Of a stretch of DNA of 64,000 bases, positions 2,210-56,544 are shown one piece after another. The position numbers were made by a program, and so were the translations under genes. How positions within the stretch are numbered: the stretch's first letter is position 1; each line of letters begins with the position of its first letter. The stretch covers positions 642-64,641 of the forward strand of contig DASXSB010000031.1 of NCBI GenBank assembly GCA_036506275.1, given 5' to 3'. The notes beneath the pieces were generated by a model. The model had not been told where the DNA came from and made no database searches. It was given only the letters and a program-made list of their open reading frames with translations. Source of the DNA: Candidatus Methylomirabilota bacterium (lineage in GTDB: Bacteria; Methylomirabilota; Methylomirabilia; Rokubacteriales; CSP1-6).

Positions 2210-2272
2210 TGCCTCCCCAGGTTGACCTGTCGGCCTGTCACGTTACCTTCCACGAGAAGGGCGCGCTCACCG

Positions 2273-38819: not shown

Positions 38820-41621
38820 CTAATCGCGCCGGAGCGGCAGCGGCCAGGAGCGGCGGGCGAGGAAGCGGTCGATGCCGGCGCGGCCGTCGGCGGCGGCGAC
38901 GAGGCGACCGAAATCGCGCGCCTCGCGGGCGAGACCGGCTTCGAGGCCTTCCGTCAATCCCACGCGCACGACGTCGAGGATGGCGCGCGCGCAGTCGGCG
39001 CGGGGCTCGTGTCGATGATGCGCGAGCAGGCGCTCGACCTCCGGGTCCCGCTCCACGTTCGGAAACGCCATCGTGTCGGGATCGGCGAGCGGGGACCACA
39101 GGTGGCCCTGAAAGCGTCCGAGCGCGATCGCGCGGGCGATGCCGAGGGCGTGGGAAAGCGCGTCGGCGGGCGCCACCTCGTCGACCAGGCCCAGCGACCA
39201 GGCATGCTGCGCCGAACGCCGGCGGCCGTCGAGGAGCAGCACCAGCGCTTCCACGAGGAGCGTGTACATCTGGCCACCGCCGGCGCGCGCCCATCGTAGC
39301 GCGAGGCGCGGGAGCATCTGGGTGCCGCCGAATCCCGGGATCACGTGCAGGTTGATCTCGGGCTGGCCGATCTCGGCGCGGTCGCCGGCCACGCGGTACG
39401 CGCACGCCATCTGGAGCTCGTTGCCGCCGCCGAGCGCGTAGCCGTCGACGGCGCTGACGACGGGCGCGCGGAGTCGCGCCAGTCGCCGGAACACCCGTTG
39501 CGCGCGCGCGGCGAACGCCTCCACGTCCGCCGCCGTCGCGAACGCGCGCAGCTCGCGGATGTCCGCCCCCGCCACGAACATGGCGCCGGCGCCGGTGACG
39601 ACGCACGCCTTGAGATCGCGCTCGGCCTCGAGAACGTCGAGCACGCGCTCGAGGTCGTCGAGGGTGGCGCGGCCGATGGCGTTCGCGGGCGGCGAATCGA
39701 TGGTGACGAGCGCGACCAGCTCCGGAAATCCCGGACGCACGGGATCGAGGCGGGCGCGCACGACGGAGCCATCCACGAAGCGCGACCCCCACGCCCCGTA
39801 CACCTCGCGTACCGTGCGGGCGCCGTCGAGGCTCGGCCCCGCGCCCACGCGGACGGCGAGCGTGCCCGTGTGGCGATTCTCTGCGATGGTCTGGTTGGCG
39901 TCGGCGAGCTCTTCCCACCGTCCCACCGCCGGCGGCGCCACCGCGAGAGCGCCGGCGTCGATCAGCCGAACCACCTCCTCCGCCTGCCACGCGTTGGAGA
40001 GATGGCTGCCGAGGATGGCGAACGCGGGAAAGAGCACGCGCTTCTGGTGCATCCACACGTTCGGCGCGTAGAAGGACAGCCGCTGGGCGTCGGTGGCCTC
40101 GAGATAGACGATGCGGCCGCTGAAGGGACGCGCCAGGAACGTGCTGATGCCGAGCGTGTCCTGACCGGCGCGTTCCACGATCACGTCCGGGTTCCCGCGG
40201 GGATTGTCGGGCGTCGCGAGGAGGCGACCCACGGCCTGGCCGAACGGCTTCAGCGTGCGGTCCTGGTAGCGACGAAAGCCCTCCGGGTCGGTGTCGTAGT
40301 CGGGCATCGCGTCCGGCCACTCGAGGCCGCCGCGCCGCGCCAGCGATTCGAGACTCACGACGGCCTGCACGGGTAACGTGGCGCGGACGTGCTCGGCTTC
40401 GTCGTCGCGCGCCGTCACCACGACCACGCGCGCGGACGCGCGGGCGGCGGCATGGACGGCGTCGGCGGCGACGGCGTCGTCCCCGCCCCCGCGGTGATAG
40501 ACGAGCACGCCTGCGTGCGGCCGCAATCCCGCTCTTCCGTACATCTCGGCGGCCGACGTCGCGCCGGGCTTGCCGAAGAAGGTCAGCGTGTAGCCGCTGG
40601 TGGCGCCGTAGAACACCAGGCGACCACCGGGCGCGAGCAGATCGATCATGCGGGGGAAGAGATCCCGCCCCACCGAGGAGACGACCACGTCGACCAGATC
40701 CCCGTCGTTCCGTTCCCGCACGAGCGCGCGGAAGGCCTCCCCCGCCGCCCGCCACTCGTACCACTCCGCACGGTCGCGCGGCACGGGAGTGAAGACGCCA
40801 TCGAGGCCGGGCGCGCGGCGATTCACGTAGGCGGCGGCGCCACGCTCGAGGATGCGCTTGCCCTTGTCGTCGGTGGACACGAGACCGACGACCCGCGCGC
40901 CCCGCCGCGCGGCGCAGGTGACGGCATAGGTGCCGGTCCCGCCGGCGGCGCCTTCCACGAACACGCGCTCGCCGACCTCCACTCCCGCCACGTCGTAGAG
41001 CGCCTTGTAGACGGTCTCGAGGTCGAGCATGAACGACGCGCCTTCGGGCAGCGTGAGGCGCTCGGAGTGGGCGAGGAGCTGCGGCGCCTGACACCGCACG
41101 AACTGCGCGAACGATCCGTCCGGGGTCTCGTAGCCCTGGATCTTGAAGTCCGCGTGCATGGGATCGTCGCCCGCCCGCGGCGAGAGGAGATCGGAGACGC
41201 CGGGATACAGAACGCGCAGCTCGCCGATCTTCAATCGTCCCTCGCGCGCGGTCTCGCTCCCCACCGCCGCCACCAGCACCACGGCGCCGCTCCCCGCGAC
41301 GTGAAGGTCGCGGTCGTGGAGATCGAAGACGGAGATGGGCACGCCGCGGGCGGCGAAGACGGTGTTGTAGGTGAGGCCGGCGTACAGCACGTAGCCGAGG
41401 GCGTCGTTCGGTCCGAGCGCGGGCGTGGGGACGATCGCGCGCTGGAGGGCGTGGGCAGGCTCGCCGTGGGCGGGCCGGCCCCACCGATCCTTCACCACCG
41501 CCCACACCTCGTGGAGCGGAGGCACCGGGTCGAGCCCGGGCCGGAACGGCGCGCCGACCGGGATCCGTTCGCCGTCCCGCTCCCACCAGCTCCGGTCGAT
41601 GTCCGCCGCCGGCTCCGTCAC
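38820..41621 (-). CDS. fused crotonyl-CoA carboxylase/reductase-like enoyl reductase (N-terminal) and enoyl-CoA hydratase/crotonase (C-terminal)
   Basis: 933 aa. Residues about 1-560 align to the CCR family (DDPMHADFKIQGYETPDGSFAQF, GAAGGTGTYAV, GRLVFYGATSGY). Residues about 640-933 form a crotonase fold (VVTGAGAMFVAGADIREL and VDGYALGGGNELQMACAYRVAG). Confidence 0.7.
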   Translation of the reverse strand: MTEPAADIDRSWWERDGERIPVGAPFRPGLDPVPPLHEVWAVVKDRWGRPAHGEPAHALQRAIVPTPALGPNDALGYVLYAGLTYNTVFAARGVPISVFDLHDRDLHVAGSGAVVLVAAVGSETAREGRLKIGELRVLYPGVSDLLSPRAGDDPMHADFKIQGYETPDGSFAQFVRCQAPQLLAHSERLTLPEGASFMLDLETVYKALYDVAGVEVGERVFVEGAAGGTGTYAVTCAARRGARVVGLVSTDDKGKRILERGAAAYVNRRAPGLDGVFTPVPRDRAEWYEWRAAGEAFRALVRERNDGDLVDVVVSSVGRDLFPRMIDLLAPGGRLVFYGATSGYTLTFFGKPGATSAAEMYGRAGLRPHAGVLVYHRGGGDDAVAADAVHAAARASARVVVVTARDDEAEHVRATLPVQAVVSLESLARRGGLEWPDAMPDYDTDPEGFRRYQDRTLKPFGQAVGRLLATPDNPRGNPDVIVERAGQDTLGISTFLARPFSGRIVYLEATDAQRLSFYAPNVWMHQKRVLFPAFAILGSHLSNAWQAEEVVRLIDAGALAVAPPAVGRWEELADANQTIAENRHTGTLAVRVGAGPSLDGARTVREVYGAWGSRFVDGSVVRARLDPVRPGFPELVALVTIDSPPANAIGRATLDDLERVLDVLEAERDLKACVVTGAGAMFVAGADIRELRAFATAADVEAFAARAQRVFRRLARLRAPVVSAVDGYALGGGNELQMACAYRVAGDRAEIGQPEINLHVIPGFGGTQMLPRLALRWARAGGGQMYTLLVEALVLLLDGRRRSAQHAWSLGLVDEVAPADALSHALGIARAIALGRFQGHLWSPLADPDTMAFPNVERDPEVERLLAHHRHEPRADCARAILDVVRVGLTEGLEAGLAREARDFGRLVAAADGRAGIDRFLARRSWPLPLRRD

Positions 41622-41664
41622 GCGCGCGCTCCGGCGCTGCTCACGTCAGGCGATGCTCATGTCA

Positions 41665-42420
41665 GGCGATGCGGACGATGCCGCGCTCCACCGGCTTGAA
41701 GCGAGCCGCCACCTCGGGGTCGTGCCCGGCCACGATGAGCTTGTCAGCGCCGGCGAGGGCGTGGATGGTGTCGAAGGCCGCCAGCATCTGGGGCAGGCTG
41801 GTGATGATCTGCACAGGCTGATAGCGTTCGACGTTCCGGTAGAAATGCGAGGCGTCGGACGTCAGCACCACGCGTCCGCGCGCGGTCTCCACGGTGACGA
41901 TCTGGAGCCCGGCCGTGTGACCGCCGACCCAGTGCACGCTGAGCCCAGGGAAGACCTCGCGCGAGCCTTCCACGAGCCGGATCCGGTTCGCGTAGTTGAG
42001 GGTGACGAGCGAGCCCATCGAGGGCGCGTTCGCCAGCATCTTGTAGACCTCGTAGCGGGCGATCTGCCCCGTCCAGAACGCCAGCTCCTCCTTCTGAACC
42101 CAGAACTCGGCGCGCGGAAAGAGCGAGTGGCCCGCCCAGTGATCCCAGTGCAGATGCGACACGAGCGCGATCGGGATGGCGTCCGCCTTCACCCCGAGCC
42201 GTTCCACCATCGCGGCCGGGCTCACGAAGTCGCGCAGGCCCCGCTGCACGGCGTCCTCCTCGCGGCATCCGGTGTCGACGAGGACGGGATGCGGCCCGCC
42301 GAGGACGAGCCACACGAAGAAGTCGAGCGTGATCGCCTCGTGGGAGGGCTCGCGATAGAAGAACTGGCAGGCAGTGGTGTCGCGGGCGCCGTACCTGAGC
42401 GCGTAGACCTCGAGCGCCAT
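41665..42420 (-). CDS. MBL-fold metallo-hydrolase (N-acyl-homoserine-lactonase-like)
   Basis: ATG at 42420 gives MALEVYALRYGAR...; HxHxDH motif in LVSHLHWDHWAGH. The start overlaps the upstream gene's stop (ATGA). Confidence 0.75.
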
Positions 42421-43448
42421 CAGCGCGCGACCTCCGCCCGCACGATGCGGGCGCCGGCGCCGAGCGCCTGTAGCTTTCTGCGCGCGACGTCGCGCGGCAG
42501 GGGCACCATCCCGCAGTTCGTGCACGGATAGAGCCGATCGGCCGGGACGAACTCGAGCGCGCGGCGAATGGTGGCGGCGACCTCCGCCGGCGTCTCGACA
42601 CGATGGGTCGCGACGTCGATGCACCCGACGAGCACGTCCTTGCCGCCGAGCAGTGCCAGCAGCGAGAGGGGCACGCGCGAGTTCGCGCACTCGAGCGAGA
42701 TCTGATCGATCCGGCTTCCCGCCAGCAGCGGAAACGTCTTCTCGTACTGTCGCCACTCCGCGCCGAGCGTCTTCTTCCAGTCGACGTTGGCCTGGATTCC
42801 GTAGCCGTAGCAGATGTGGACGGCGGTCCGGCACGTGAGCCCTTCGATGGCGCGATGAAGCGCCTCGATGCCCCAGTGGGCCACGTCGTCCATGTAGACG
42901 TTGAAGGCGGGCTCGTCGAGCTGGAGCACGTCGAGCCCGGCCGCCTGCAGCTCGCGCGCCTCCTCGTTGATGACCCGCGCGAACTCCAGCGCGAGCCGGG
43001 CGCGATCGCGATAGTGCTCGTCGGCGAGCGTGTCCACGATGGTCATGGGGCCGGGGATCGTGAACTTGAGCTGGTGATCGGTGTGCGCGCGCGCCCATCG
43101 CACCTCGTCGACGTGCACGGGAGCGCGCCGCCGCACGGGTGCCGTCACCGTCGGCACCTCCGCCTTGTAGCGGTCGGCGCGGATACCGATCGTCACCCGC
43201 CGGCCGAAATCGATCCCGTCCAGCTTCTCGAGGAACCCGTGCACGAAATGCTGTCGCGACTGCTCGCCGTCGGTGACGATGTCGATGCCCGCCGCCTCCT
43301 GGTCCTTGAGCGCGACGAGCACGGCATCACGCTGGCCGTCCGCGAGGCTCTCGGGTGGCAGCCGCCACGGCGCCCACAGGGTTTCCGGCGTCGCGAGCCA
43401 GGCGGGCTTCGGAAGACTCCCGGCGATCGTCGTGAGTAGCACCGACAC
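42420..43448 (-). CDS. cobalamin-independent methionine synthase (MetE) C-terminal-domain-like protein
   Basis: 342 aa with a UROD/MetE_C-like fold (MSVLLTTIAGSLPKP..., ICYGYG, and Cys residues for zinc binding). Confidence 0.7.
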   Translation of the reverse strand: MSVLLTTIAGSLPKPAWLATPETLWAPWRLPPESLADGQRDAVLVALKDQEAAGIDIVTDGEQSRQHFVHGFLEKLDGIDFGRRVTIGIRADRYKAEVPTVTAPVRRRAPVHVDEVRWARAHTDHQLKFTIPGPMTIVDTLADEHYRDRARLALEFARVINEEARELQAAGLDVLQLDEPAFNVYMDDVAHWGIEALHRAIEGLTCRTAVHICYGYGIQANVDWKKTLGAEWRQYEKTFPLLAGSRIDQISLECANSRVPLSLLALLGGKDVLVGCIDVATHRVETPAEVAATIRRALEFVPADRLYPCTNCGMVPLPRDVARRKLQALGAGARIVRAEVAR

Positions 43449-43534: not shown

Positions 43535-44683
43535 CTAGAAGAACAGGCGCGCGAGGCCCTTCACGGCGTGAGAGGACACGAAGCGGAGCCGCCGCGCGTA
43601 TGCCACGACGAGCGAGCGCCCGCCAGCGGCTCCGTACTCGGTGGCCATGAACTCGGGCGACGGGAAGAGCAGCGAGCGCGCATAGCGCGCGCGTTCACCG
43701 AAGGTCGGAAGCGCGAAGAGGGCGGCCAGGCTCTCGCCGCCCTCGACCCCGCCCTCGGACGACGCCAGTCTCGCCAGCCATCGATCACGCACGCGGAGGG
43801 GGGCACGGCCGAGCGTATCCCGCACGCCCGGCGGCACCGGCGTGTAGAGGAGGTTGCACACGACGTTGATCAGCGGCGCGATGAGCGGCGCGACCGCGGC
43901 CGCCTCCGCTTCCGCCACGAACGTCAGCCAGTCGAGCCCGGCGCCTTCGCGGCGGACGAGGCGATCGATCTCGTAGAGCCAGAGGAGGGGCGCGTCCGCG
44001 CCCTTGTGGACGGCATGGAGACAGAGATGGAGAAGCAGATCGGCCGGCGCCAGCCGCCACGTCTCCACGCCGGCGACGGTCGCGCGGCGGCAGCGATGCC
44101 ATACGCGCTCCATCGCCACGCGCTCGCCGAACGGCGGGTACGCGATCGTCCAGTGGGGCTCCACGATCATCCAGCCGTGGCGCTGCTTCGCGAACTCGAG
44201 CGTGTAGGAGAACGCGCGCGCGAACCCGGGCCGGCGGTCGATCTCCTGGAATCCGCGCTCCTGCAGGAGCGCGGTCAGCGCCTCCAGCTCGCTCTTGCGC
44301 ACGAGCAAATCGAGATCGCCCATCGGACGCACGCTCGCATCGTCGTGGAGGCGCTCGCCGAGCGCGAGGCCTCGGAGCGGCGCGACCGACAGCGAGCGCT
44401 GGGCGGCGGCCCCGACGATGTCGGCGAGCTCGCTCGCGAACATCAAATTCCGGGCGGCCACTCCCGCCGCGCGCGCCCTCAGCGCTTCGCGCGCGAGCTC
44501 CGGCACCGCGGCCGCGGTCCCGCCCGCCACGAGGGCGCGGTGCAGGAGCGGCGTCAGCGCGTGGCGGTCGGCCTCGTCGAGCGCCGCCGTCCAGCCGTCC
44601 GCGGGCACGAGACCCAGGAGCGTGTCGGCGCTCTCGCCGCGCATGAGGGCGAGCAGCAGCGGATGCGCGCGAGGCGGCGTCAT
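43535..44683 (-). CDS. uncharacterised nucleotidyltransferase-family protein (Pol-beta-like NTase), lasso-cluster associated
   Basis: ATG at 44683 gives MTPPRAHPLLLALMRGESADTLLG...; NTase motif GDLDLLV (hG-x-DxD). It overlaps the kinase stop (ATGA). The track ORF 43535..45700 is over-extended. Confidence 0.75.
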   Translation of the reverse strand: MTPPRAHPLLLALMRGESADTLLGLVPADGWTAALDEADRHALTPLLHRALVAGGTAAAVPELAREALRARAAGVAARNLMFASELADIVGAAAQRSLSVAPLRGLALGERLHDDASVRPMGDLDLLVRKSELEALTALLQERGFQEIDRRPGFARAFSYTLEFAKQRHGWMIVEPHWTIAYPPFGERVAMERVWHRCRRATVAGVETWRLAPADLLLHLCLHAVHKGADAPLLWLYEIDRLVRREGAGLDWLTFVAEAEAAAVAPLIAPLINVVCNLLYTPVPPGVRDTLGRAPLRVRDRWLARLASSEGGVEGGESLAALFALPTFGERARYARSLLFPSPEFMATEYGAAGGRSLVVAYARRLRFVSSHAVKGLARLFF

Positions 44684-45663
44684 GCCGCGAGGTCCACCTC
44701 GACGGCCGCCCGCACCGCGCGCAGGCGATGGAGGCCGCGGGGGAAGCTCAAGCGCTTGACGGGAACGGCGACCGCGAGCCGTGCCGCCAGCTCGAACTGG
44801 CGCGCGAGACGAGCGGGATCGCGAACGAGCGTGTTGAACGTGGCGCGCACGAGCTCCACGAACGCCGCGCGCGGCGAGAGCGGCTCGATCGCGACCGCGG
44901 GCGGGCGGGGACCCTTTGGAGAGCCAAGGACGTAAAGCGCCGCCAGCGGCGCCGCCTCCGCGTGGCCGAGACCATTGCGGAGGGGGATCACGAGCTTCGG
45001 CGTGAGATCGTTCATCGGCGTCCCGCCCGCGGCGTCCCCGAGCACCGCGCGCGCGACGTGAGGAAAGAGCTTGATGCGCGCCGGGCCGGGATGGGCGAGA
45101 TAGCCCCGGGGATCCGGCGTCAGCACCAGGAGATCGTCGGTGAGCAGCGCGTGTCCCGCGCGGAGAAAGGCGGCGCCGAGGCTCGACTTGCCGTACCCGC
45201 AGTCGCCCACGAAGCCGACGGCGCGGCCGTTCACCACCGCCGCCGTCGAGTGGAGCGGTTCCCGGCCCAGCCGGAGCAGCGCGAACGAGAGCGTGTGGCC
45301 GAGGAGGTACGTGCGAAACGCCTCGAAGGCGTCCCTGCGCAGCGGCCGGCAATCGATGGCGCGACCGTCGGCGGCGACCAGGAACTCGAAGAGTCCGCGC
45401 CAGCGCACGTAGTCGGCGCCGTCGGCGAGGCGCGCGTGCTCGAACCACGCTGCCGGCGCCCGGCGGCGGAGCTGACGCCGCGCGGGCGCGAAGAACGCGG
45501 CCGGGCGCTCGTGGATCGCGGCCTCGGGCGGCCGGCCGTCTTCTCCACGCGGACACGGAAGCGGCACCACGCTCGCCACGCGCAGTCCGTAGACCTCGTA
45601 GGTGGCGGGATCGCCGGGCGCCGCGCCACGAGAGGCGCGCACGGTCGGGATCGCCGTCCTCAT
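44680..45663 (-). CDS. HPr-kinase-related serine kinase (lasso peptide tailoring kinase family)
   Basis: ATG at 45663 gives MRTAIPTVRASRG.... It has the HprK C-terminal-like domain with Walker A GDCGYGKSSLG. Its start overlaps the precursor stop (ATGA). Confidence 0.8.
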   Translation of the reverse strand: MRTAIPTVRASRGAAPGDPATYEVYGLRVASVVPLPCPRGEDGRPPEAAIHERPAAFFAPARRQLRRRAPAAWFEHARLADGADYVRWRGLFEFLVAADGRAIDCRPLRRDAFEAFRTYLLGHTLSFALLRLGREPLHSTAAVVNGRAVGFVGDCGYGKSSLGAAFLRAGHALLTDDLLVLTPDPRGYLAHPGPARIKLFPHVARAVLGDAAGGTPMNDLTPKLVIPLRNGLGHAEAAPLAALYVLGSPKGPRPPAVAIEPLSPRAAFVELVRATFNTLVRDPARLARQFELAARLAVAVPVKRLSFPRGLHRLRAVRAAVEVDLAA

Positions 45664-45815
45664 CCGCTCCCCGCGCGCGTCTTGGGGCCGGGGTTGGCAC
45701 CGTTGTTGGCTTCGTTCTTCGCCTTCTGCGTGCCCTCCGTGAGCGTGCGGAGGTCGCCGTAGCGCCGGAGGCGCGGCGGCGCGTACGGCTTCTTCGTGTG
45801 GGTCGGTGTCGTCAT
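45660..45815 (-). CDS. lasso peptide precursor (51 aa)
   Basis: MTTPTHTKKPYAPPRLRRYGDLRTLTE|GTQKAKNEANNGANPGPKTRAGSG. The leader matches YxxPxLx3Gx5Tx exactly (Y11, P14, L16, G20, T26). The core starts with Gly1 and has Glu8 for an 8-residue macrolactam. A GGGGGAG RBS lies 6 nt upstream. The ATG overlaps the upstream cyclase stop and the stop overlaps the kinase start. The gene is missing from the ORF track because it is under 60 aa. Confidence 0.85.
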   Translation of the reverse strand: MTTPTHTKKPYAPPRLRRYGDLRTLTEGTQKAKNEANNGANPGPKTRAGSG

Positions 45816-47692
45816 GTCGTTCTCCCCCAGAAGCGCTCGAGCCAGCGATCCACCGTGACGAGGAACCAGACTTCCCAGCGCAGCTCTTTTTGACCGGCGA
45901 CGTAGCGGTCCACCAGCCGTCGCGCCGATCGGAGGTCCACGTAGCGGCCGAGGCGGCCGGAGCGGTTCTCGAGCGCGGCCGGAGGATCGCGGCGGCACAG
46001 CGCGGTGAGGCTCCGGTCCATCGTGTCCGTCCAGTCGCCCTTGCCGCGCCGGAAGCGGATGGTGTCGGGCACGATGCCGCGCATCGCGCTTCGAAGTAGC
46101 CGCTTCCGCTCACCGCCGTGCGTTCGCCGCGTCGACGGCACGGAGAGGACGTACTCCACGAGCCGGGCATCGAGGAACGGAAAGCGCGTCTCCACGCCCG
46201 CCGCCGCCGACGCGCGCTCGTCGACCTCGAGCTTCAACACCTGGTACGCGCTGGCCACGCAGAGATAGCTGTCGGCTTGCGCGAACGATGGAAACGGGAC
46301 GGTGTGCCACGGCTCGCGCAGGCGATCGCGCAGGCCGACGGCGCGCGCCAGTCCTCCGTTGATCCACGGCGGCGGCGCCCGCCGCAGAGCGCGCTTGGCG
46401 ACGTACTTCATCCGCGGCGGGACCAGCAGCGCGAGGGCCATGCCCGCGAACTGCGCCCGGCTCCCGCCGTACCACGAGGCGAACGCGCGCGTGTCGTGGA
46501 GGAAGCGGCGGAGCCGGAGCTCGTGCACGAGGTCGGCGAGATACCCGACCTCGTCGAGGAGATGATCGCCGCCGTCGCCGGAGAGCAGCACGCGGCAACC
46601 CCACGCCAGAACGGCGTCGGTGCCGGCGAGCACGCTCTGGCGAGCCGCTCCCACGATGGGGCTCTCCACCTCCCACAGCAGCTCGTCGATCCGGTGGAGA
46701 GGATCATCGTCGGCGGCGTGGATCTCATGGCCCTTGCGACCGGTGGCGGCGACGACGTCCCGCGCGAACGTCCGCTCGTCGGAGGCAGGGTCATCGGAAA
46801 AGAGCGTGAACGCCTCCAGCGCCGGCACGCCACCGTCGGGGCCGCCGCCGTACCGCTCGGCCGTGCACAGGATCGCGGAGGAGTCGAGGCCACCACTAAC
46901 GAAGACGCCGATCGGGAACTCGCTGCGCAGGCGGCAGCGCACGGCCTCGGCGAACAGCGTCAGGAAGTGGTCGACGTACTCGTCGTCGCGCGCGTAGCGC
47001 GTCTCGCGCAGGGGATCGATGGCCCAGTACCGCCCCACGCGGGCGACGCCGTTGCGCACGGTCAGCACGTGTCCCGGCGGGAGCCGGCACATCCCGCGAA
47101 AGAACGTGCGGTCGTGATCGCGCTCGCGGAACTCGCGGAGCAGGAACGCGAGCACCATCTCGTCGTCGGGCTCCGGGATGGCGCCGCGCGCGGCCAGCAA
47201 CGGCTTGATCTCGGATCCGAAGAACAGCGTCGGCCCCGCCCATGTGTAGTGCAGGGGCTTGAGCCCGAGGCGGTCGCGCGCGCACACGAGCGTTTGCACG
47301 CGGTCGTCCCACAGCGCGAACGCGAACTCGCCGACCATGTGGTCGAGCGCGCGCAGACCCCAGCGGCGGTACGCGCGAAGCACGAGCGCGGGGTCGGTGG
47401 CGCCGGCCCCCGGCGCCATGTCGGCGCCGAGCGTCACCGTCAGCTCCTGGCGGTTGTCGAGGCGCCCATCCCAGACGAGCCGGACGTCACCGGTGTCGTC
47501 GATGACGGGCTGCTTTTCGTGGAGCGATTCCGGCGTCGTGTAGAGCAGGCGATGCCCGAGACCGATCGGCCCCTCGTGCCACTGGCCTTCCCCATCCGAG
47601 CCGCGATGCGCGATGGCCTTGACCATCCGCGCGAGCGTGGTCGGGTCCACGGGGCGACCGTCGGTGCGATGGATTCCGACCAGTCCGCTCAC
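45812..47692 (-). CDS. lasso peptide lactam synthetase, asparagine-synthetase-like cyclase paralog 2
   Basis: GTG at 47692 gives VSGLVGIHRTDG.... There is no catalytic Cys2 (Ser instead). It carries the PP-loop FVSGGLDSS and a full AsnB-like C-terminal domain. Its start overlaps the paralog-1 stop (GTGA). Confidence 0.8.
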   Translation of the reverse strand: MSGLVGIHRTDGRPVDPTTLARMVKAIAHRGSDGEGQWHEGPIGLGHRLLYTTPESLHEKQPVIDDTGDVRLVWDGRLDNRQELTVTLGADMAPGAGATDPALVLRAYRRWGLRALDHMVGEFAFALWDDRVQTLVCARDRLGLKPLHYTWAGPTLFFGSEIKPLLAARGAIPEPDDEMVLAFLLREFRERDHDRTFFRGMCRLPPGHVLTVRNGVARVGRYWAIDPLRETRYARDDEYVDHFLTLFAEAVRCRLRSEFPIGVFVSGGLDSSAILCTAERYGGGPDGGVPALEAFTLFSDDPASDERTFARDVVAATGRKGHEIHAADDDPLHRIDELLWEVESPIVGAARQSVLAGTDAVLAWGCRVLLSGDGGDHLLDEVGYLADLVHELRLRRFLHDTRAFASWYGGSRAQFAGMALALLVPPRMKYVAKRALRRAPPPWINGGLARAVGLRDRLREPWHTVPFPSFAQADSYLCVASAYQVLKLEVDERASAAAGVETRFPFLDARLVEYVLSVPSTRRTHGGERKRLLRSAMRGIVPDTIRFRRGKGDWTDTMDRSLTALCRRDPPAALENRSGRLGRYVDLRSARRLVDRYVAGQKELRWEVWFLVTVDRWLERFWGRTT

Positions 47693-49566
47693 GCGGCGGC
47701 GCCCACGACGACGGTCCCCTCGGGCGCCCACTGCTTCAGCCATCGTTCGAGCTTGACGAGGTTCCACAGAAGGGTGCGGGAGGGCACGTGTCCGCCGAGA
47801 TACCGGTCGCGCATCTGCTCGGCCTCGGCGCGCCGCACGTAGGCGAAGACACGGGCGTCGGCGCCGAAGAGCTCGCGATCCCAGCATCGCGCCTCCAGAC
47901 GCGCGGTGAGCTCGGGATCCCGGGATCCGACCGCGTGGGTGTTCTCCGCACCTCGCGCCGGCCCGGCCGCGGATGCGAGGGCATGCTGGACGAACTGCTT
48001 GCGGTATCCGCGTCCGAGCTTCACATCGGCGGGCACGGCGAGGAAGAACTCGATGAGTCGCCGGTCCAGGTACGGGTACCGGCACTCGAGCCCGAACGCC
48101 GACGCCACGGCGTCCATCTGATCGAGCGCGAACACCGTGGCCGGATTCGTGAGTGCCCGGTACGTCGTCTCCTGGCACCAGGTGGGAAACGTGCGCGGCG
48201 GACGCTCCACCGTCCGCTCTTGCATGCCCACCCGCTTCGCGAACGCGGGCTCGATCCACTCCGGCACCTGCCGTCCCGCCAGCGTCTTCACGCGCCGGCG
48301 CCACGCGGGAGAAAGCTGGCCCCAGAGCAGCCAGAGCAGCGTGGCGGCCGAGGCGTCACCGCCGTAGGCGGCAGCGCGGAGGCGGAGGTCGCGGCGCAGT
48401 CGGAGCAGCCGCCCGGCGCGGAGGAGGTCCGCCAGGAATCCGTCCTCGGCGCTCTGGCTCAGCTCGTCGGCGCCGAAGCCGCTGAGCAGGGTGCGACAGC
48501 CGACGTTCCGCGCCGGCTCGAGAAGGAGGGGGACCGTCGGCAAGCCGTCGTGGTGCGGTGTTTCCCCGCACTCCATGAACGGCTCGAACGACGTCACCGG
48601 CGCGCCGCCCGCGGACGGAACGACGCGACGTATCGGTGTCCCGTACACCAGCTCCAGCCATTCGAGCGCGCCCGCCTCCTCCGCGTACATCTCGTCGTCG
48701 AAGAGCGTGAGGCCCTCCAGGGGAGGCAATCCCGGATCGTCGGCGCGCAACGATTCCGCGGTGGCGGCCACCGACGTGGAATCGATCCCGCCGCTGAGCA
48801 ACATTGCGACGGGACCTCTCCCCGGGAGCCGGCACCCGACCGCGTCCCGGAACAGCGCCGTGAAGTGATCGAGATAGTCGTCCTCGCGGCGATAGCGAAG
48901 CTCGCCTCCACTCGCGGGCGTCCAGTAGCGAACGATCTCCACGCCATGGGGACGGAGCCGCAGAACGTGTCCGGGCGGGAGCCGCCGAATCTCCGCGAAG
49001 AAGGTGGCGCTGGAATCGCGAAAGCCCATGAGGAGGAGATCGGCGACGGTGGCCTCGTCCAGCCCGCGGCCGACGTCGGGATCGGCGAATAGTGCCTTGA
49101 TCTCCGACGCGAACAGCAGGCGGCGGCCGTTCCAGTGGTAGTAGAGCGGCTTGACGCCGAGCGCGTCGCGCGCGCAGAGCAGCGTCCGCGTGCGCTCGTC
49201 CCACAGCGCGAGCGCGAAGTCGCCGGCGATCCGCGCAAACGCGTCTTCACCGCGGGCGCGGTATATCTCCAAGATCATCTCGGCGTCGGACCAAGCGGAC
49301 GTCGCGCGCTCGGCGCCGAGCACGGCGCGATCGTCGACTCGTCCGTCCCAGGTGATCCAGCACTGGCCCGCCGCATCCGCCACCGGGGCCTTTTCGCGCA
49401 GCGACGCCGGCGTGGTGGCGAAGAGGCGGTGCCCGAGCGCGATCGGCCCTTTCGCCCACTGCCCCTCACCGTCCCGCCCACGGTGCGAGAGAGCCTCGGT
49501 CATCCGCGCCAGCAGCGCGGGGTCGGCGAGACCGCCGTCGACGCGGCAGATACCGGCGATGCCGCT
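47689..49566 (-). CDS. lasso peptide lactam synthetase, asparagine-synthetase-like cyclase paralog 1
   Basis: ATG near 49566 gives MSGIAGICRVDGG.... It has Ser, not Cys, at position 2 and the PP-loop LLSGGIDST. Its start overlaps the B2 stop (ATGA). My local indexing is uncertain by about 3 nt. Confidence 0.8.
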   Translation of the reverse strand, partial: SGIAGICRVDGGLADPALLARMTEALSHRGRDGEGQWAKGPIALGHRLFATTPASLREKAPVADAAGQCWITWDGRVDDRAVLGAERATSAWSDAEMILEIYRARGEDAFARIAGDFALALWDERTRTLLCARDALGVKPLYYHWNGRRLLFASEIKALFADPDVGRGLDEATVADLLLMGFRDSSATFFAEIRRLPPGHVLRLRPHGVEIVRYWTPASGGELRYRREDDYLDHFTALFRDAVGCRLPGRGPVAMLLSGGIDSTSVAATAESLRADDPGLPPLEGLTLFDDEMYAEEAGALEWLELVYGTPIRRVVPSAGGAPVTSFEPFMECGETPHHDGLPTVPLLLEPARNVGCRTLLSGFGADELSQSAEDGFLADLLRAGRLLRLRRDLRLRAAAYGGDASAATLLWLLWGQLSPAWRRRVKTLAGRQVPEWIEPAFAKRVGMQERTVERPPRTFPTWCQETTYRALTNPATVFALDQMDAVASAFGLECRYPYLDRRLIEFFLAVPADVKLGRGYRKQFVQHALASAAGPARGAENTHAVGSRDPELTARLEARCWDRELFGADARVFAYVRRAEAEQMRDRYLGGHVPSRTLLWNLVKLERWLKQWAPEGTVVVGAAA

Positions 49567-50003
49567 CATCGTGGAGATCCCGCGCGCGTGGAGAGCAGAG
49601 GCGCGAAGCCGCATCCGTCGTCGCCGAACAGCACTTCCCCGTCGCGCTCGAGCCAGGCGTGGGCGGCGAGCGCGCCGTCGCGGCGGGCGACGCCGATCTG
49701 GAGCGTGGTGGCGATGCCGCGGCGGCGGAGGAGCCAGGAGAGAACGAGCGCTTGCTTGAGGCAGGTCACGCGCCCCGGCGCGTAGCGGCCGGCGACCTCG
49801 ACCAGCCACGCCAGCCGTGCGATCGACAGCGACGACCCTGCCGGCGCCGGGGGGCACCCGGGAAAGACGTCGGCCAGCTTCAGCAACGACGCGAGGGGAA
49901 GAAAGACGAGGCCGGCATCGGCGACGAAGAAGAGAACCCAGGCACGAACGAGGAGCGCGCGCTCCCCCCGCGGAAGCTGCGCGAGCTTAAGCAGCCGCCC
50001 CAC
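49563..50003 (-). CDS. lasso peptide leader peptidase B2 (transglutaminase-like cysteine protease)
   Basis: Probable GTG start about 14 nt before the B1 stop gives VGRLLKLAQLPRGERALLVRAWVLFF...; Cys-His-Asp triad context in GRVTCLKQALVLSWLLRRRGIATTLQIGV and ALAAHAWLERDGEVL (Transglut_core3-like). Confidence 0.8.
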
Positions 50004-50286
50004 GCTCCACGTCCACCAGCTCGTTCTCGCGCAGGGCCACCACCAGGCGCAGGAGGTCCCACTCGGCCTCGTCCGGCGTGACATCGTACTCGGCGAGAAC
50101 CGCCGCGAGGGCAGCGCTCAGCGTCGGATCACGGGTGAGCGCCTGCCAGATGGTCGTGCCCACCGGATCGAGACCGAAGTAGACGCCCGTGGTGAGGTTG
50201 AGAATGACGGCCTCGCCGTCGAGATCGCGCGAGACCACGTCGGAGCGAATGCGGATGCGCGTGTCGAGCGTGATGCCGCCCTTCAT
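49987..50286 (-). CDS. lasso peptide leader-binding protein B1 (PqqD-like RRE)
   Basis: ATG at 50286 gives MKGGITLDTRIRIRSDVVSRDLDGEAVILNLTTGVYFGLDPVGTTIWQAL..., a typical PqqD/RRE winged-helix sequence. The track ORF extends far upstream as an antisense artefact. Confidence 0.8.
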   Translation of the reverse strand: MKGGITLDTRIRIRSDVVSRDLDGEAVILNLTTGVYFGLDPVGTTIWQALTRDPTLSAALAAVLAEYDVTPDEAEWDLLRLVVALRENELVDVERGAAA

Positions 50287-50477: not shown

Positions 50478-50547
50478 GCCCGCCAGGCCCGGTATGATGG
50501 CGGGCGTGACTTCGTCTCGATGGCCGGAGGCGCACGCGCGCTGCGGC

Positions 50548-52122
50548 ATGGTCGCCTCCCCTCACGCGCTCGCGTCTCAGGCGGGCGTGGCGATCCTCGC
50601 CGCCGGCGGCAACGCCATCGATGCCGCGATCGCCGCCGCCATCACGCTCGCGGTCGTCTATCCGCACATGAACGGCATCGGCGGCGACAACGTCTGGCTC
50701 ATCTACGACGCCGGCCGCGCCGACCTGCGCGGCCTGAACGCCGCTGGCCGCTCCGCGGCGTCGGTGACGCTCGACGCCTACCGGGCGCGCCACGACGGCG
50801 CGATGCCGATCCGCGGCGGTGCCGCCGCGCTCATGGTGCCGGGTACAGTGTCGGGGTGGTGGGAGGCGCATCGCTACAGCCGGGATCGCATGGGCTCGCC
50901 GGTGGCGTGGACGACGCTCTTCGACCACGCCATCCGCCACGCGCGCGACGGATTTCCGGCATCGGCCGCCCAGCGGCGGATGACCACGGCCGCGCCGGGA
51001 ATCTTCGAGCCGAGCGCCGCTGCCGACGTGCGGCGGACGCTGTGGCCGATCTACCATCCGGATAGACTGACCGCGCCTGCCTTCGTCCAGACCGATCTCG
51101 GCGCCACGCTGGCGGCGGTGGCGGCGGGCGGGAGCGACGAGTTCTATCGCGGCGCGCTCGCGCGGCGCTTGGTGGCAGGCGCCGCCGCCGTCGGGAGCCC
51201 GCTCACCGCTGCCGACCTGGAATCACACCGCGCGGATTGGGTCACGCCGCTGCGCATCCTTTATCGGGGTGGGGAGGCGGCGACCCTTCCCCCGCCGACG
51301 CAGGGCATGTCCGCGCTCGCGATCCTGGCCCTGCTCGAAGGCTTCGAGCTCGATGTCCTCGACGACGCCACCTACGTCCATCTCGTCGTGGAGGCGACGA
51401 AGCTCGCCTTCGAGGACCGCGACCGCTACCTTGCGGACCCCACCGTCGTCGCCGTGCCCGTGGAGACGTGTCTCGACCGTGGGCGCCTCGAGCACCGTCG
51501 CACGGCCATCTCCGCGCGAGCGGCGAGGCCGGCCGCGAGCGCGCATGCGGGCGGCGGTGACACGGTGGCCATCGTGACCGCGGACGCGGACGGCAACGCG
51601 GTGTCGGTGATCCAGAGCCTCTACCACGAGTTCGGAGCGGGCGTGGTGGCGGGAGACACCGGCATCGTGCTGCAGAACCGCGGCGCCTTCTTCTCGCTCG
51701 ATCCGGCGCATCCCAACTGTCTGGCGCCGCGCAAGCGCACCGCCCACACGCTGATCCCGTCGATGTACCTCGTCGGGGGGCGGCCACGCTTCGTCTACGG
51801 CACCATGGGCGGCGAAGGGCAGCCGCAAACACAGGCCGCGCTCGTCACACGACTGGTCGACCGTGGCCTCGGCCCCCAGGCCGCGGTCGAGGCACCGCGC
51901 TGGCTTTTCGGCCGCACGTGGGGCGAGGTGTCGCGCAGCCTTCGCCTCGAAGGGCGCTTCGGTCCGGCGACGGCGGAGGCGCTGCGCGCGCGGGGGCACG
52001 ACGTCGTGCTGATCGACGACTGGAGCGATCTCGTCGGCCACGCCCAGGTGATCCAACTCGACGGCGACGGCCTGCGCGGCGGATCGGACCCGCGCGCGGA
52101 CGGTGCTGCTCTCGGGTGGTGA
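50548..52122 (+). CDS. gamma-glutamyltransferase-family protein
   Basis: GGT motifs are present (MVASPHALASQAGVAILAAGGNAIDAAIA; catalytic Thr region TTHTLIPSMYL-like; GGEGQPQTQAAL). The start could be at 50494 or 50548. Confidence 0.8.
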   Translation: MVASPHALASQAGVAILAAGGNAIDAAIAAAITLAVVYPHMNGIGGDNVWLIYDAGRADLRGLNAAGRSAASVTLDAYRARHDGAMPIRGGAAALMVPGTVSGWWEAHRYSRDRMGSPVAWTTLFDHAIRHARDGFPASAAQRRMTTAAPGIFEPSAAADVRRTLWPIYHPDRLTAPAFVQTDLGATLAAVAAGGSDEFYRGALARRLVAGAAAVGSPLTAADLESHRADWVTPLRILYRGGEAATLPPPTQGMSALAILALLEGFELDVLDDATYVHLVVEATKLAFEDRDRYLADPTVVAVPVETCLDRGRLEHRRTAISARAARPAASAHAGGGDTVAIVTADADGNAVSVIQSLYHEFGAGVVAGDTGIVLQNRGAFFSLDPAHPNCLAPRKRTAHTLIPSMYLVGGRPRFVYGTMGGEGQPQTQAALVTRLVDRGLGPQAAVEAPRWLFGRTWGEVSRSLRLEGRFGPATAEALRARGHDVVLIDDWSDLVGHAQVIQLDGDGLRGGSDPRADGAALGW

Positions 52123-52131
52123 CGGACTCCG

Positions 52132-53226
52132 CTATCGTAGGAGTCGCGCGTAATTCTGGCGGCAGCTTACGACTTTCGGATGACCCGGCCCGAGCGATCT
52201 CTCGAAAATCCGGAGGGCGCGTCGATAGAGCGCCTCCGCCCTCGTTCCCCTACCCGTCTGCTTGTTGAGCAGCGCGAGGTTGTTCAGCGTCATGGCGACA
52301 TCCGGATGCTCACGGCCAAGCACTCTCTCCTTGACCGCCAGGGCTCGCTGATAGAGCCGCTCGGCTTTCGCGTGCTCGCCCCGCGCTTGGTGTATGGCCG
52401 CCAGATTGTTGAAGTTTACGGCGAGCTCGTAGTGGTTGCGGCCGAACCTGCGTTCGAAGACTGTGATTGCTCTGCGATACAGCGGCTCCGCCTCATGGTG
52501 CTTGCCCTGACGATCGAGGATCGCCGCCAGCGCGGCCGCGTCGGCCGCCACATCGCGATGATTCGCACCGAGCCCTTTCTGCCTGATCTCCACCGAGCGC
52601 CGGGCGAACGACTCGGCCCGGGCATACCTGCCGCGGGCGTGCTCGAGGCCACCCAGGTTGTGATAGATCGTCGCGACCTCGGGATGGCTCGCGCCGAGCG
52701 CTCTTTTCGTGATCGACAGCGCCCGACCGTAGAGCCGCCGCGCCTCGTCGAAACGCCCCGTGTACTTATAGAGAACGGCCAGGTTGTTGAGCAGGGCCGC
52801 AGACTGCAGATCGTCGGTACCGAACTTGGCTCGTGCGATACGCAGCGCGCGCGCGAAGAGTCGCGCCGCCTCGCGATAGCGGCCCTGCACGCGCTGGATG
52901 TTGGCGAGCTTGCCGAGTGCGTCCGCATAGAGCCTGTCGGCGCGGTCAACGCCACGTGTCTCCCCGAGAATTTCGACGCAGCGACGGTAACACCGTTCGG
53001 CGTCGGCATACTCGCTGCACTCCTCGTGAATCGCGCCCAGCGTTTTCAGGACGCGCGCGCTGTCGGGACTCTGGGCCCCGCCCGCGCGCTTCAGGACCCT
53101 CAGCGCGCGAGCGCAGGCCCGTCGCGCCTTCGCATACTCCCCGCGCCCGAGGTCGAGCGTGGCGAGATGGTGAAGCCGGCGCGTCTCTTCATATCCCTCC
53201 TTGCGATCGCGTCCGTTCCGGATCAC
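52132..53226 (-). CDS. tetratricopeptide-repeat (TPR_10/12-type) protein
   Basis: 364 aa made almost entirely of about 42-aa TPR units (ALxxLAxLYxxQGRYxEAEPLYRRAL...). Its GTG start overlaps the stop of small peptide P1 (GTGA). Confidence 0.8.
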   Translation of the reverse strand: MIRNGRDRKEGYEETRRLHHLATLDLGRGEYAKARRACARALRVLKRAGGAQSPDSARVLKTLGAIHEECSEYADAERCYRRCVEILGETRGVDRADRLYADALGKLANIQRVQGRYREAARLFARALRIARAKFGTDDLQSAALLNNLAVLYKYTGRFDEARRLYGRALSITKRALGASHPEVATIYHNLGGLEHARGRYARAESFARRSVEIRQKGLGANHRDVAADAAALAAILDRQGKHHEAEPLYRRAITVFERRFGRNHYELAVNFNNLAAIHQARGEHAKAERLYQRALAVKERVLGREHPDVAMTLNNLALLNKQTGRGTRAEALYRRALRIFERSLGPGHPKVVSCRQNYARLLR

Positions 53227-54289: not shown

Positions 54290-54466
54290 CGAAAGGCGTC
54301 AGCACCGCCGGGCGGTCACCACGTGGACAAAATTCTGAAAAGCGCGAAGCCGAGCGAGTTGCCGGTCGAAACTCAAGACCGGCAAACCCTGGGCCTCACG
54401 ATCCCGCCGTGGTTCCTGTCGCGCGCGAGATCATCCAATGACGTCGTCCGATCCGACACGTCTTAG
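54290..54466 (+). pseudogene. decayed C-terminal fragment of an ABC-transporter substrate-binding protein
   Basis: The translation ...HHVDKILKSAKPSELPVETQDRQTLGLTIPPWFLSRARSSNDV resembles the conserved C-terminus of ABC SBPs (motif: ...[35 protein letters not shown]...) with an internal deletion. It sits in a lower-GC region with no intact ORF. Confidence 0.45.
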
Positions 54467-54990
54467 TCCAGCGCGACCTCCCTGGAGAACACCGTGAACG
54501 AGGAGCGGCGGGTGGCGGCGAGCGCCTCGCTGATCTCGGCGGCGCCGCGGCCGGCGCCCTGACGCAGGAGCACCTCGAAGAAGCGTGTGTAGAACCAGTC
54601 GGGGTAGACCACGACGCTGAAGCGCGCGCGCACGCCGGGCGCGCCCGCGCGCCCCCGATACTCGAGCACCGCCGTCGCGCCCGGGAGCAGGCGCGTGTCG
54701 CTCACCTCGGCGGCGAGGTCGAGGGTGACGTCGCGGGCGATCACCGTCTCCTGCCGCGTTCCCGCCACCACCTGCCCCGCTCCGTCCACGAGCTCACCGC
54801 GCAAGACCACCCGTGGCGTGACGTAGGTCGGAAACGCGTGCCCCACCCCCGTGTTGGTGACGCTCAGGGTGCCGATCACGCGATCGCCGTCGCGCGACGG
54901 CGGTGACGCCCCGTCGAGCTTGACCGTGATGCCGGAGCGCACCATCTCCGCGTCGTGGATGCCGCGCCACAGATGGCGGCGATCCGGCAT
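54463..54990 (-). CDS. hypothetical protein encoded 4 nt downstream of the multiheme cytochrome
   Basis: 175 aa with no recognisable motifs. It is co-directional and essentially abutting the cytochrome gene. Confidence 0.4.
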   Translation of the reverse strand: MPDRRHLWRGIHDAEMVRSGITVKLDGASPPSRDGDRVIGTLSVTNTGVGHAFPTYVTPRVVLRGELVDGAGQVVAGTRQETVIARDVTLDLAAEVSDTRLLPGATAVLEYRGRAGAPGVRARFSVVVYPDWFYTRFFEVLLRQGAGRGAAEISEALAATRRSSFTVFSREVALD

Positions 54991-54993
54991 GTG

Positions 54994-55689
54994 TCAGTCC
55001 TGGCACTGAACCCCCGCCGTCGCGAACCGGCTCGCCGCCCATTCGCGGTACGTGTTCTCGAGCAGCTTGCCGTTGAGGGCAAAGCCGTCGTCGGTGAACT
55101 GATGACATCCGCGGCAGAACTCGGCCGTCAGAAAGGCCGGCGTCCGCGTCACCCCGCGGTGAGGAAGGTTCTCCCGTGGCGCCGCGCTCGCCGTGCTGCC
55201 GTCACGGCGCGGGGGGCCGAACCGCTCGTGGCCGCGCACGTGGCAGCCCGCGCAGGGGATGCCTTTCGGGCGGAGCGTCGCGTCGAACGCGGGGTTGGGC
55301 ACGAGGCCGCCGTCCTTCGGCACGAGCGGTCGCTGTTCGAAGAGCGGCGCGTGGCAATTCTGGCAGTCGAGCGCGCTCCGCGGCTCCTTTTCCAGCATCT
55401 CGCGGAGCTGGCCGGCCACCCCCGGTCCCATGGACGCGGCATGAATGCTGCCCCGCCAGTCCGCGTGCTGCACGGGATGGCAGGTGCCGCACGCCTCCGG
55501 TTGCAGCGACGCCTCGACCGGCGTGAAGCGTGACGGCGGAAGTCCCTGCTGCGGAAGAGGCTGCCGCCAGTGTCGGGTCACGAAATCTTCAGCGGCCAGG
55601 GCGAGACCGAACAGGAGCGTGACAAGCGCGGCAAGCACGACACCGAACGGGACGGCGACGGGGACGGAAGAGGCCGGCACTCGGCGCAT
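54994..55689 (-). CDS. tetraheme c-type cytochrome
   Basis: 231 aa with an N-terminal TM/signal anchor and four CxxCH motifs (CGTCH, CQNCH, CAGCH, CRGCH). Confidence 0.8.
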   Translation of the reverse strand: MRRVPASSVPVAVPFGVVLAALVTLLFGLALAAEDFVTRHWRQPLPQQGLPPSRFTPVEASLQPEACGTCHPVQHADWRGSIHAASMGPGVAGQLREMLEKEPRSALDCQNCHAPLFEQRPLVPKDGGLVPNPAFDATLRPKGIPCAGCHVRGHERFGPPRRDGSTASAAPRENLPHRGVTRTPAFLTAEFCRGCHQFTDDGFALNGKLLENTYREWAASRFATAGVQCQD

Positions 55690-55800
55690 CGCCCTACGTT
55701 ACCAGCCGTGCTCTCCCGATGGCATTCGTCGTGCAGTTTCGAGTCCTAGCCTCTGGATGTGAAGGTCTTTCACCAACACCCGACGACGAGGGACAGGACC

Positions 55801-56544
55801 ATGGTGATGAGACACAGCCCATTCGAGCTACAACCGTCGGCCGCCGCCGAGGGATCGAGCCGTCGCGCCGGGGGCGACTACGCGAGGGGAGTCAACGTCG
55901 GTCAGGGTGAGCGCTGGGCGTCGGTGTTGGCAGGGGCCGCGCTCGCCGTCTACGGCATCACGCGCGCGTCGTGGGCGGGGCTCGCGCTCGCGGTGGTGGG
56001 CGGGACGCTCGTCTATCGTGGCGCCAGCGGCCGCTGCCAGCTCTACTCGGCGCTCGACATCGACCGCGCGCATCCGGGCGTGCGGCAGGGCAACCTCGGG
56101 ATCAAGGTCGATCAGGCGGTGCTCGTCAACGCGCCGGCCGACCGCTTGTTCCGGTTCTGGCGCAACCTGGAAAACCTGCCGCGCATCATGTCGAACGTCG
56201 AGTCCGTGCGCACAGAGAGTCCCATGCGGTCGCACTGGGTCGTGCGCGGGCCCGCCGGGAAGGCGTTCGAGTGGGACGCGGAGGTCATCAACGAGGTGCC
56301 CAACGAGACCATCGCGTGGCGCTCGGTGGGTCACCCCGACGTCGAGCACGCGGGCTCGGTGCGTTTCGAGCCTGCTCCCGACGGCGGCACGGTCGTGCGC
56401 GTGTCGCTCCAGTACGACCCTCCCGCGGGCGTGATCGGCGGCGTCATCGCCGCCTCCACGTGGCTCGGCGACGCGGGGCAACGGATCGACGAAGATCTCA
56501 CGAACTTCAAGCAGGCGGTGGAGTCCGGTCGCATCGCGGCCTGA
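55801..56544 (+). CDS. SRPBCC-family (polyketide cyclase/dehydrase-like) protein with an N-terminal DUF2892-like membrane segment
   Basis: Internal ATG gives MVMRHSPFELQ...; the DUF2892-like GERWASVLAGAALAVYGITRASWAGLALAVVGGTLVYRG segment is followed by an SRPBCC fold. Confidence 0.65.
   Translation: MVMRHSPFELQPSAAAEGSSRRAGGDYARGVNVGQGERWASVLAGAALAVYGITRASWAGLALAVVGGTLVYRGASGRCQLYSALDIDRAHPGVRQGNLGIKVDQAVLVNAPADRLFRFWRNLENLPRIMSNVESVRTESPMRSHWVVRGPAGKAFEWDAEVINEVPNETIAWRSVGHPDVEHAGSVRFEPAPDGGTVVRVSLQYDPPAGVIGGVIAASTWLGDAGQRIDEDLTNFKQAVESGRIAA

Follow-up and report, generated by a model that had tools for sequence, protein, structure and literature searches.

A lasso-peptide operon of uncultured bacteria pairs a canonical cyclase with a distinct, conserved asparagine-synthetase-like paralog

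Cyclases represent the least understood step of lasso-peptide biosynthesis, and a lasso locus that encodes two cyclase paralogs next to a single precursor gene raises the question of what the second paralog is for. Such a locus is found in a 64-kb stretch of DNA (64,000 nucleotides of contig DASXSB010000031.1, Candidatus Methylomirabilota bacterium; hereafter the window), where a minus-strand lasso-peptide operon of seven genes, 6.8 kb long and ordered B1-B2-C1-C2-A-K-N, carries the two paralogs C1 and C2. It can safely be stated that the locus is a lasso-peptide operon, that C2 is its canonical cyclase and that C1 is a distinct, conserved and non-redundant paralog. In our reading, C1 is not a second ordinary cyclase: it is of ancient origin, is inherited obligately together with C2, and has kept the whole AsnB fold and an invariant PP-loop. 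As for its role, the reading that we tentatively favour is that C1 is a partner subunit of C2 in a heteromeric cyclase, with a probability of roughly 45%. The genes of the operon are the following.

49987 to 50286, minus strand: B1, PqqD-family RRE for leader-peptide binding, 99 aa; Pfam PqqD 56.6 bits (cutoff 23.4)
49566 to 50003, minus strand: B2, transglutaminase-like lasso leader peptidase, 145 aa from a GTG start at 50003
47689 to 49569, minus strand: C1, divergent asparagine-synthetase-like paralog, 626 aa, ATG start, MSGIAG...
45812 to 47692, minus strand: C2, canonical-type lasso macrolactam synthetase, 626 aa, GTG start, VSGLVG...
45660 to 45815, minus strand: A, precursor peptide, 51 aa; NCBIfam lasso_leader_L3 21.5 bits (cutoff 19)
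44680 to 45663, minus strand: K, HprK-like kinase, 327 aa; P-loop GDCGYGKSS
43535 to 44683, minus strand: N, NTP_transf_5 nucleotidyltransferase, 382 aa; Pfam NTP_transf_5 156.8 bits (cutoff 31.2)

C1 and C2 are both of the two-domain AsnB type, with an Ntn-like N-terminal domain matched by Pfam GATase_7/GATase_6 and a PP-loop synthetase domain matched by Asn_synthase (110 bits for C1, 185 bits for C2). They share 37% identity over the full length (E = 6e-108) and are most alike in their N-terminal domains, at 45-50% identity versus 18-35% elsewhere. An earlier note on this DNA had described two tandem, full-length, overlap-coupled genes of AsnB fold that start with (M/V)SG, are devoid of the glutaminase Cys and retain the SGGxDS PP-loop, and all of this is seen in both genes: the frames are intact, 626 aa each, and overlap in the tetranucleotide GTGA. 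The coordinates that it gave for the pair, 45812-49566, are exact except at the upper end, which lies 3 nt short of the C1 start codon (49569). At the position of the Cys of E. coli AsnB (MCS...), Ser is found in C1 (MSG), in C2 ((V->M)SG) and in all other lasso-cyclase-like sequences examined, and the expected site of the glutamine-binding Asn-Gly-Glu of AsnB, assigned by eye, is occupied by WDGR in both paralogs. The PP-loop sequence is LLSGGIDS for C1 and FVSGGLDS for C2.

The best NCBIfam model for either protein is that of the lasso cyclases, NF033535, whose curated cutoff of 525 bits is reached by neither C1 (358) nor C2 (458.6). C2 does exceed the cutoff of TIGR01536, 'asparagine synthase (glutamine-hydrolyzing)', with 286.2 versus 267.1 bits although it has no Cys nucleophile, which accounts for the misleading 'glutamine-hydrolyzing' annotations of the family in public records. 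Like the McjC-type cyclases covered by NF033535, C1 and C2 have a two-domain AsnB fold, no glutaminase nucleophile, a PP-loop and linked B1, B2 and precursor genes; they differ from these in scoring below the model cutoff and, in the case of C1, also in lacking the conserved Lys and Arg. The context of a lasso cluster is present for both paralogs: B1 (RRE) and the B2 protease are encoded next to them, as is a precursor whose predicted ring-forming residue is Glu at core position 8.

The two paralogs are not equivalent in their conserved residues. A residue comparison was made on 16 C1-type, 13 C2-type and 19 other lasso-cyclase-like sequences aligned with E. coli AsnB, and a larger set of 62 C1-like and 75 other sequences was used for the signature positions. 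C2 retains all positions that are conserved in single lasso cyclases, including the Lys of GKGDW (K551) and an Arg (R534), whereas C1 has lost four of them: R203, E489, R534 and K551 in C2 numbering. R534 and K551 align with R433 and K449 of AsnB, where the window C1 has Gln and Thr, respectively. At the R433 position, 59/62 C1-like sequences of the larger set have Gln and 72/75 of the others have Arg, and a Lys near the K449 position is found in 5/62 versus 73/75. K449 is among the residues of asparagine synthetase B (AS-B) that contact the beta-aspartyl-AMP intermediate (PMC4659947). The SGGxDS motif is invariant in both groups (62/62 and 75/75). Thus, the description of the pair in the earlier note as two lasso cyclases holds for C2, which keeps the residue set of single cyclases, and fails for C1, which forms a separate and rare subfamily with no equivalent of the K449 Lys and with Gln for the R433 Arg.

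Conserved residues specific to the C1 clade are very few; almost none of them is polar and none is obviously catalytic. Those specific to the C2 clade are many, among them several charged ones in the N-terminal domain (R141, E178, E187, R195). Orthologs of C1 are conserved at 46.4% and those of C2 at 51.5%; the relaxation in C1 falls mainly in two parts of the synthetase domain, segments 290-365 and 545-626. The AlphaFold2 model of C1 has a pLDDT of 90.1 and a pTM of 0.92 and matches TsnB9, AsnB, beta-lactam synthetase and carbapenam synthetase (CarA) over both domains, with TM scores of 0.71-0.77 to TsnB9 (7YLZ) and 0.59/0.73 to AsnB (1CT9). No lasso cyclase structure was found in the copy of the PDB that was searched.

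The pairing of C1 and C2 is preserved over a wide range of hosts. With C1 as query, a search retrieves about 60 clusters (90% identity) as a separate set, whose scores are far higher with C1 than with C2, and in every readable locus that holds either type with enough flanking sequence the two genes are adjacent, with C1 before C2. The order C1-C2-precursor is seen in the window (L001), L002, L003, L082-L088, L166, L167 and the P0053 locus, and the full arrangement B1-B2-C1-C2-A-K-N is common to all loci that could be read around a C1-type or C2-type gene. With host labels such as Rokuibacteriota (L002), Gemmatimonadota (L003), Acidobacteria (L082) and a metagenome-assembled genome (MAG) labelled Limnocylindria (L083), the pair spans at least three phyla. 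In a neighbour-joining tree the C1 clade has a bootstrap of 100 and the C2 clade one of 96, and their grouping as sisters is weakly supported (32). A recent or local duplication, redundant as the earlier note had allowed for, is rejected, since orthologous pairs recur across phyla and C1 and C2 fall in separate clades. Nor is C1 a pseudogene, a further possibility raised at that time: both frames are intact, the C1 model has a pLDDT of 90 and the pair is conserved in at least three phyla.

The C1 subfamily is real but rare. Genome and metagenome scans with the C1 alignment returned mostly generic AsnB-like loci, with 6 new C1-type loci among 160, and an exhaustive profile search of 1.84 billion representative proteins showed a score gap after roughly the first dozen matches, with the C1 signature present in about 14 of the 150 best-scoring cluster representatives. 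The family is confined to uncultured soil and groundwater phyla and would be missed by culture-based work; gene callers partly hide the C1/C2 pair as well. L166, which was taken into account as a C2-type cluster devoid of C1, turned out to be a gene-calling artefact: at positions 1387-3162 of this locus (GCA_964535625.1), a spurious 429-aa reverse open reading frame (ORF) had been called over an intact C1-like frame. In the window locus, C2 was called by JGI from an internal start that yields 612 aa, instead of from the GTG at 47692 that overlaps the C1 stop; the GTG start is backed by the alignment of the N-terminal MSG with orthologs.

The precursor defines what the two paralogs may act on. 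Gene A encodes the predicted leader MTTPTHTKKPYAPPRLRRYGDLRTLTE followed, after the predicted leader/core boundary, by the core GTQKAKNEANNGANPGPKTRAGSG, for which a G1-E8 ring is predicted. The calculated mass of this core is 2324.158 Da as a linear peptide, 2306.148 Da after formation of one lactam and 2288.137 Da after two, and any phosphate group would add 79.966 Da. A family hidden Markov model (HMM) built from 9 orthologous precursors finds gene A at E = 3e-23, with the next match in the window at E > 1, and no further precursor was detected in the 64-kb window by regular expression or by this HMM; the earlier claim of one precursor for two cyclase paralogs was therefore upheld. An ortholog of A occupies the same position, right after C2, in 10 loci, with one precursor per locus. 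The ten precursors share the leader ...PYxPP[RK]Lxx[YF]GD[LF]RxLTx, and the ring pattern is G1-x6-E8 in 9/10 and G1-x7-E9 in L084. The ring is followed by a variable Gly/Asn/Pro-rich loop of 3-9 residues, by a Lys closely followed by Thr and a basic residue, and by a short Gly-rich end. The tail Lys lies 7 or 8 residues from the C-terminus in 10/10 precursors, even where the Thr shifts (L084, L166), and the sole conserved hydroxyl residue of the cores adjoins it. The C-terminal residue is Gly or Ala in 8/10; the window core ends in ...AGSG, and only the core of L166 ends in Ser (1/10). As a single acidic side chain is conserved in the cores, no site is left for another ring of the standard type. 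The predicted products are small, Gly-rich and strongly cationic.

The organization of the operon is consistent with stoichiometric production of its proteins, as all genes are coupled by overlaps. In particular, the stop of C1 and the start of C2 share GTGA, the junctions B2/C1, C2/A, A/K and K/N each consist of ATGA, and B1 and B2 share 17 nt when B2 is taken, as here, to start at GTG 50003. Third-position G+C content (GC) is 0.83-0.93 in the correct frame along both C1 and C2, in a window with a GC of about 70%.

Collectively, the strict co-occurrence and coupling of C1 with C2, the loss of residues needed for the standard chemistry, the scarcity of compensating gains and the conserved N-terminal domain are the grounds on which C1 is read as a partner subunit of C2. 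In the mechanism that we propose, B1 would bind the YxxPxL...T leader and B2 would cut before Gly1; C2, in an ATP-dependent reaction, would adenylate the side chain of Glu8 and close the G1-E8 macrolactam, while C1 would bind ATP and/or the peptide and would help folding or threading, or regulate C2, with no standard adenylation of its own. The cationic tail would subsequently be tailored by K and N. Gene content, coupling, conservation, clades and residue patterns are observed; the existence of a C1-C2 complex, the way its members share the work and what K and N act on are inferred. Of the three explanations that the earlier note offered, the heteromeric cyclase and the repurposed amide-forming enzyme are the ones retained. 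If the job is indeed split between a canonical cyclase and an obligate altered paralog, the system would offer a way into the question of how the pre-lasso fold is kept in place and threaded; a catalytic C1, by contrast, would reveal ring-forming or tailoring chemistry that is new for the AsnB family. Either outcome would be of interest to the lasso peptide field and to that of peptides made by the ribosome and modified after translation (RiPPs).

Some observations weigh against the role of partner subunit. The PP-loop of C1 is invariant (62/62) and the Asp equivalent to D351 of AsnB is near-invariant (60/62); these positions would be expected to drift in a pure scaffold, so that C1 probably still uses ATP. 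In addition, the K449 loop of C1 contains a conserved Arg-x-x-Glu that might replace the missing Lys. Lastly, strict coupling is not universal, as an extra gene comes between B2, C1 or C2 in L082 and L084. The extra gene of the Acidobacteria locus (L082:10095-10901) encodes 268 aa with no Pfam match and lies between C1 and C2; that of L084 (4140-5699), between B2 and C1, encodes a 519-aa TPR protein.

The main alternative is that C1 is a neofunctionalised second macrolactam synthetase, which would act after closure of the ring by C2 and join the C-terminal alpha-carboxylate to the epsilon-amine of the tail Lys, thus forming a second ring of 7-8 residues. The precursors lend themselves to this idea: the distance from Lys to the C-terminus is kept at 7-8 in 10/10 of them while the E8-to-Lys loop ranges in length from 3 to 9 residues and the adjacent Thr changes place, the spacing equals the size of the N-terminal ring, and the C-terminal residue, Gly or Ala in 8/10, fits as well. 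On the side of the enzyme, the PP-loop does not vary in C1 and the Mg-binding Asp hardly does, as would be expected of an active ATP-using enzyme. A Lys-to-C-terminus bond of this kind exists in lariocidin B (LAR-B), a lasso peptide with such an isopeptide linkage (PMC11451635), and AS-like enzymes are known to work on RiPP C-termini (PMC13060819). C1, however, has no Lys to contact an acyl-AMP as in AsnB, a residue kept by 73/75 related enzymes, and almost no newly conserved polar residues from which a new active site could be built. The constant spacing could also reflect recognition by the kinase or the nucleotidyltransferase, or the steric-lock geometry of a threaded tail. The second ring thus appears doubtful.

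The comparison with lariocidin points in both directions. Its B form resembles the product predicted here in being a cationic lasso peptide with an 8-residue N-terminal ring, and a second ring between a Lys side chain and the C-terminal carboxylate would be chemically possible for the present peptides; in lariocidin this bond joins Lys2, whereas the candidate Lys here is in the tail. The lariocidin route has one cyclase, and its second ring requires LrcF, a clostripain-like protease, rather than another cyclase (PMC11451635). No such protease is found in the operon: among the seven operon proteins, B2 is the sole one with a protease domain by NCBIfam and Pfam. That the operon makes a genetically encoded double-lariat lasso peptide by means of two dedicated AsnB-like cyclases, with C1 closing the C-terminal macrolactam, is judged unlikely; if true, the class V topology, of which lariocidin B is so far the only known case, would have a new enzymatic route. 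Lariocidin targets the ribosome and is cationic (PMC11451635), a property common to the predicted products.

A less probable alternative, which we regard as quite unlikely, is that C1 is an amide synthetase with a tailoring role, which would draw on an external amine or on free ammonia to amidate the C-terminus or another carboxylate, possibly together with K and N. C1 shares its fold and the PP-loop ATP pyrophosphatase chemistry with TsrC, ScdTA, PesC, AsnB, beta-lactam synthetase and TsnB9; the AS-like enzymes TsrC, ScdTA and PesC act on the C-terminal carboxylates of RiPPs, which they amidate or convert to nitriles, and ATP-binding residues are reported to be conserved among enzymes of this type (PMC13060819). 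An intact ATP site in C1 and the presence of other tailoring genes, K and N, in the operon would also suit this activity. PesC, though, takes its nitrogen from glutamine (PMC13060819), and C1, having no glutaminase Cys, cannot make ammonia from glutamine as TsrC-type enzymes do. The N-terminal Cys of AsnB is missing from C1 and C2 alike, the equivalent of K449 is missing from C1, and C1 groups with lasso-cyclase-like proteins in the tree, though weakly with C2 (32% bootstrap).

That C1 and C2 are both ordinary cyclases, redundant or specialised for different substrates, perhaps with precursors encoded elsewhere, is very improbable even though the lasso cyclase model is the best match for both and clusters of this kind do exist (L090, where two tandem cyclases with the Arg/Lys signature precede three ORFs that are candidate precursors): each of 10 loci has a single precursor and no other was detected in the 64-kb window, C1 has lost residues kept by nearly all other cyclase-like sequences, redundancy would not maintain two separate clades paired across phyla, and specialisation for precursors supplied in trans, as the earlier note had suggested, is disfavoured by the presence of exactly one precursor directly after C2 in each locus. 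The L090 cluster (JADMIO010928585.1, 2213-9560; 51% GC) is a different, lasso-like system: besides an ABC transporter and a fused B protein of 248 aa, it has a tandem of AS-like genes that share 44% identity and have both retained the Arg/Lys signature. After these come three small ORFs in tandem (MYTVSDLTEIG...), the candidate precursors.

Besides C1, the operon is close to the clusters of paeninodin (Paenibacillus dendritiformis) and pseudomycoidin (Bacillus pseudomycoides), with which it shares a PqqD-type B1, a transglutaminase-like B2, a Cys-less AsnB-like cyclase, the YxxPxL...T leader, a putative HprK-like gene and, for pseudomycoidin, a nucleotidyltransferase. Those clusters have one cyclase, whereas here there are two paralogs, and reviews on lasso tailoring likewise list a single cyclase in kinase and nucleotidyltransferase clusters. 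The paeninodin and pseudomycoidin cores end in Ser, the site of phosphorylation, as does only one core in ten here; the characterised lasso kinases require a C-terminal Ser in their substrates (PMC8498205). The pairing of a canonical with an altered cyclase is therefore apparently an undescribed variant architecture: full-text literature searches returned no description of a two-cyclase-paralog lasso architecture or of Rokubacteria lasso peptides, with an earlier mention possible, as the RODEO paper and the Barrett & Mitchell review were outside their coverage.

The remaining operon genes are in line with their assignments to different degrees. B1, which opens the operon in all related loci, scores 51.7 and 41.9 bits with the NCBIfam lasso_PqqD models, in both cases under the cutoff. 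B2 is matched by NCBIfam lasso_biosyn_B2 (88.6 bits, cutoff 33) and Pfam Transglut_core3 (84.6 bits); an alternative ATG start upstream, at 50084, would give 172 aa, and the JGI gene call uses 50003. K is kept directly after the precursor gene in all related loci and has weak matches only, to TIGR04352 HprK_rel_A (27 bits, cutoff 200) and Pfam Hpr_kinase_C (17, cutoff 33). N closes the operon in all related loci that have sufficient flank. A scan for promoters and terminators was uninformative, and no ABC exporter adjoins the operon in the window.

The window proteins match, with full identity, those of a MAG that carries the annotation Methylomirabilota (Rokubacteria), and the same operon is also found on a JGI metagenome contig. 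The surroundings of the operon comprise the following genes.

50494 to 52122, plus strand; 41662 to 43448 and 38820 to 41621, minus strand: gamma-glutamyltranspeptidase (GGT), MBL-fold, Meth_synt_2-like and 933-aa ADH_zinc_N/enoyl-CoA-hydratase (ADH/ECH) fusion proteins, flanking the operon
52132 to 53226 and 54463 to 55689, minus strand; 55759 to 56544, plus strand: genes beyond GGT, of TPR, putative cytochrome and SRPBCC type

The GGT, MBL-fold, Meth_synt_2-like and ADH/ECH genes recur in L083, L085-L088 and L167 at 70-84% identity and are absent from L002, L003, L082 and L084, so that they were rejected as members of the cluster. Being found only in the closest lineage and being more conserved than the operon genes, they reflect chromosomal synteny, and the lasso operon seems to have been inserted between core genes that are conserved in the lineage of the window. 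Beyond GGT there are a 364-aa TPR-repeat protein, a pair with weak matches to multihaem cytochrome c and a YgaP-like/Polyketide_cyc2 (SRPBCC) protein; the multihaem cytochrome c-like pair is also kept in L085-L088.

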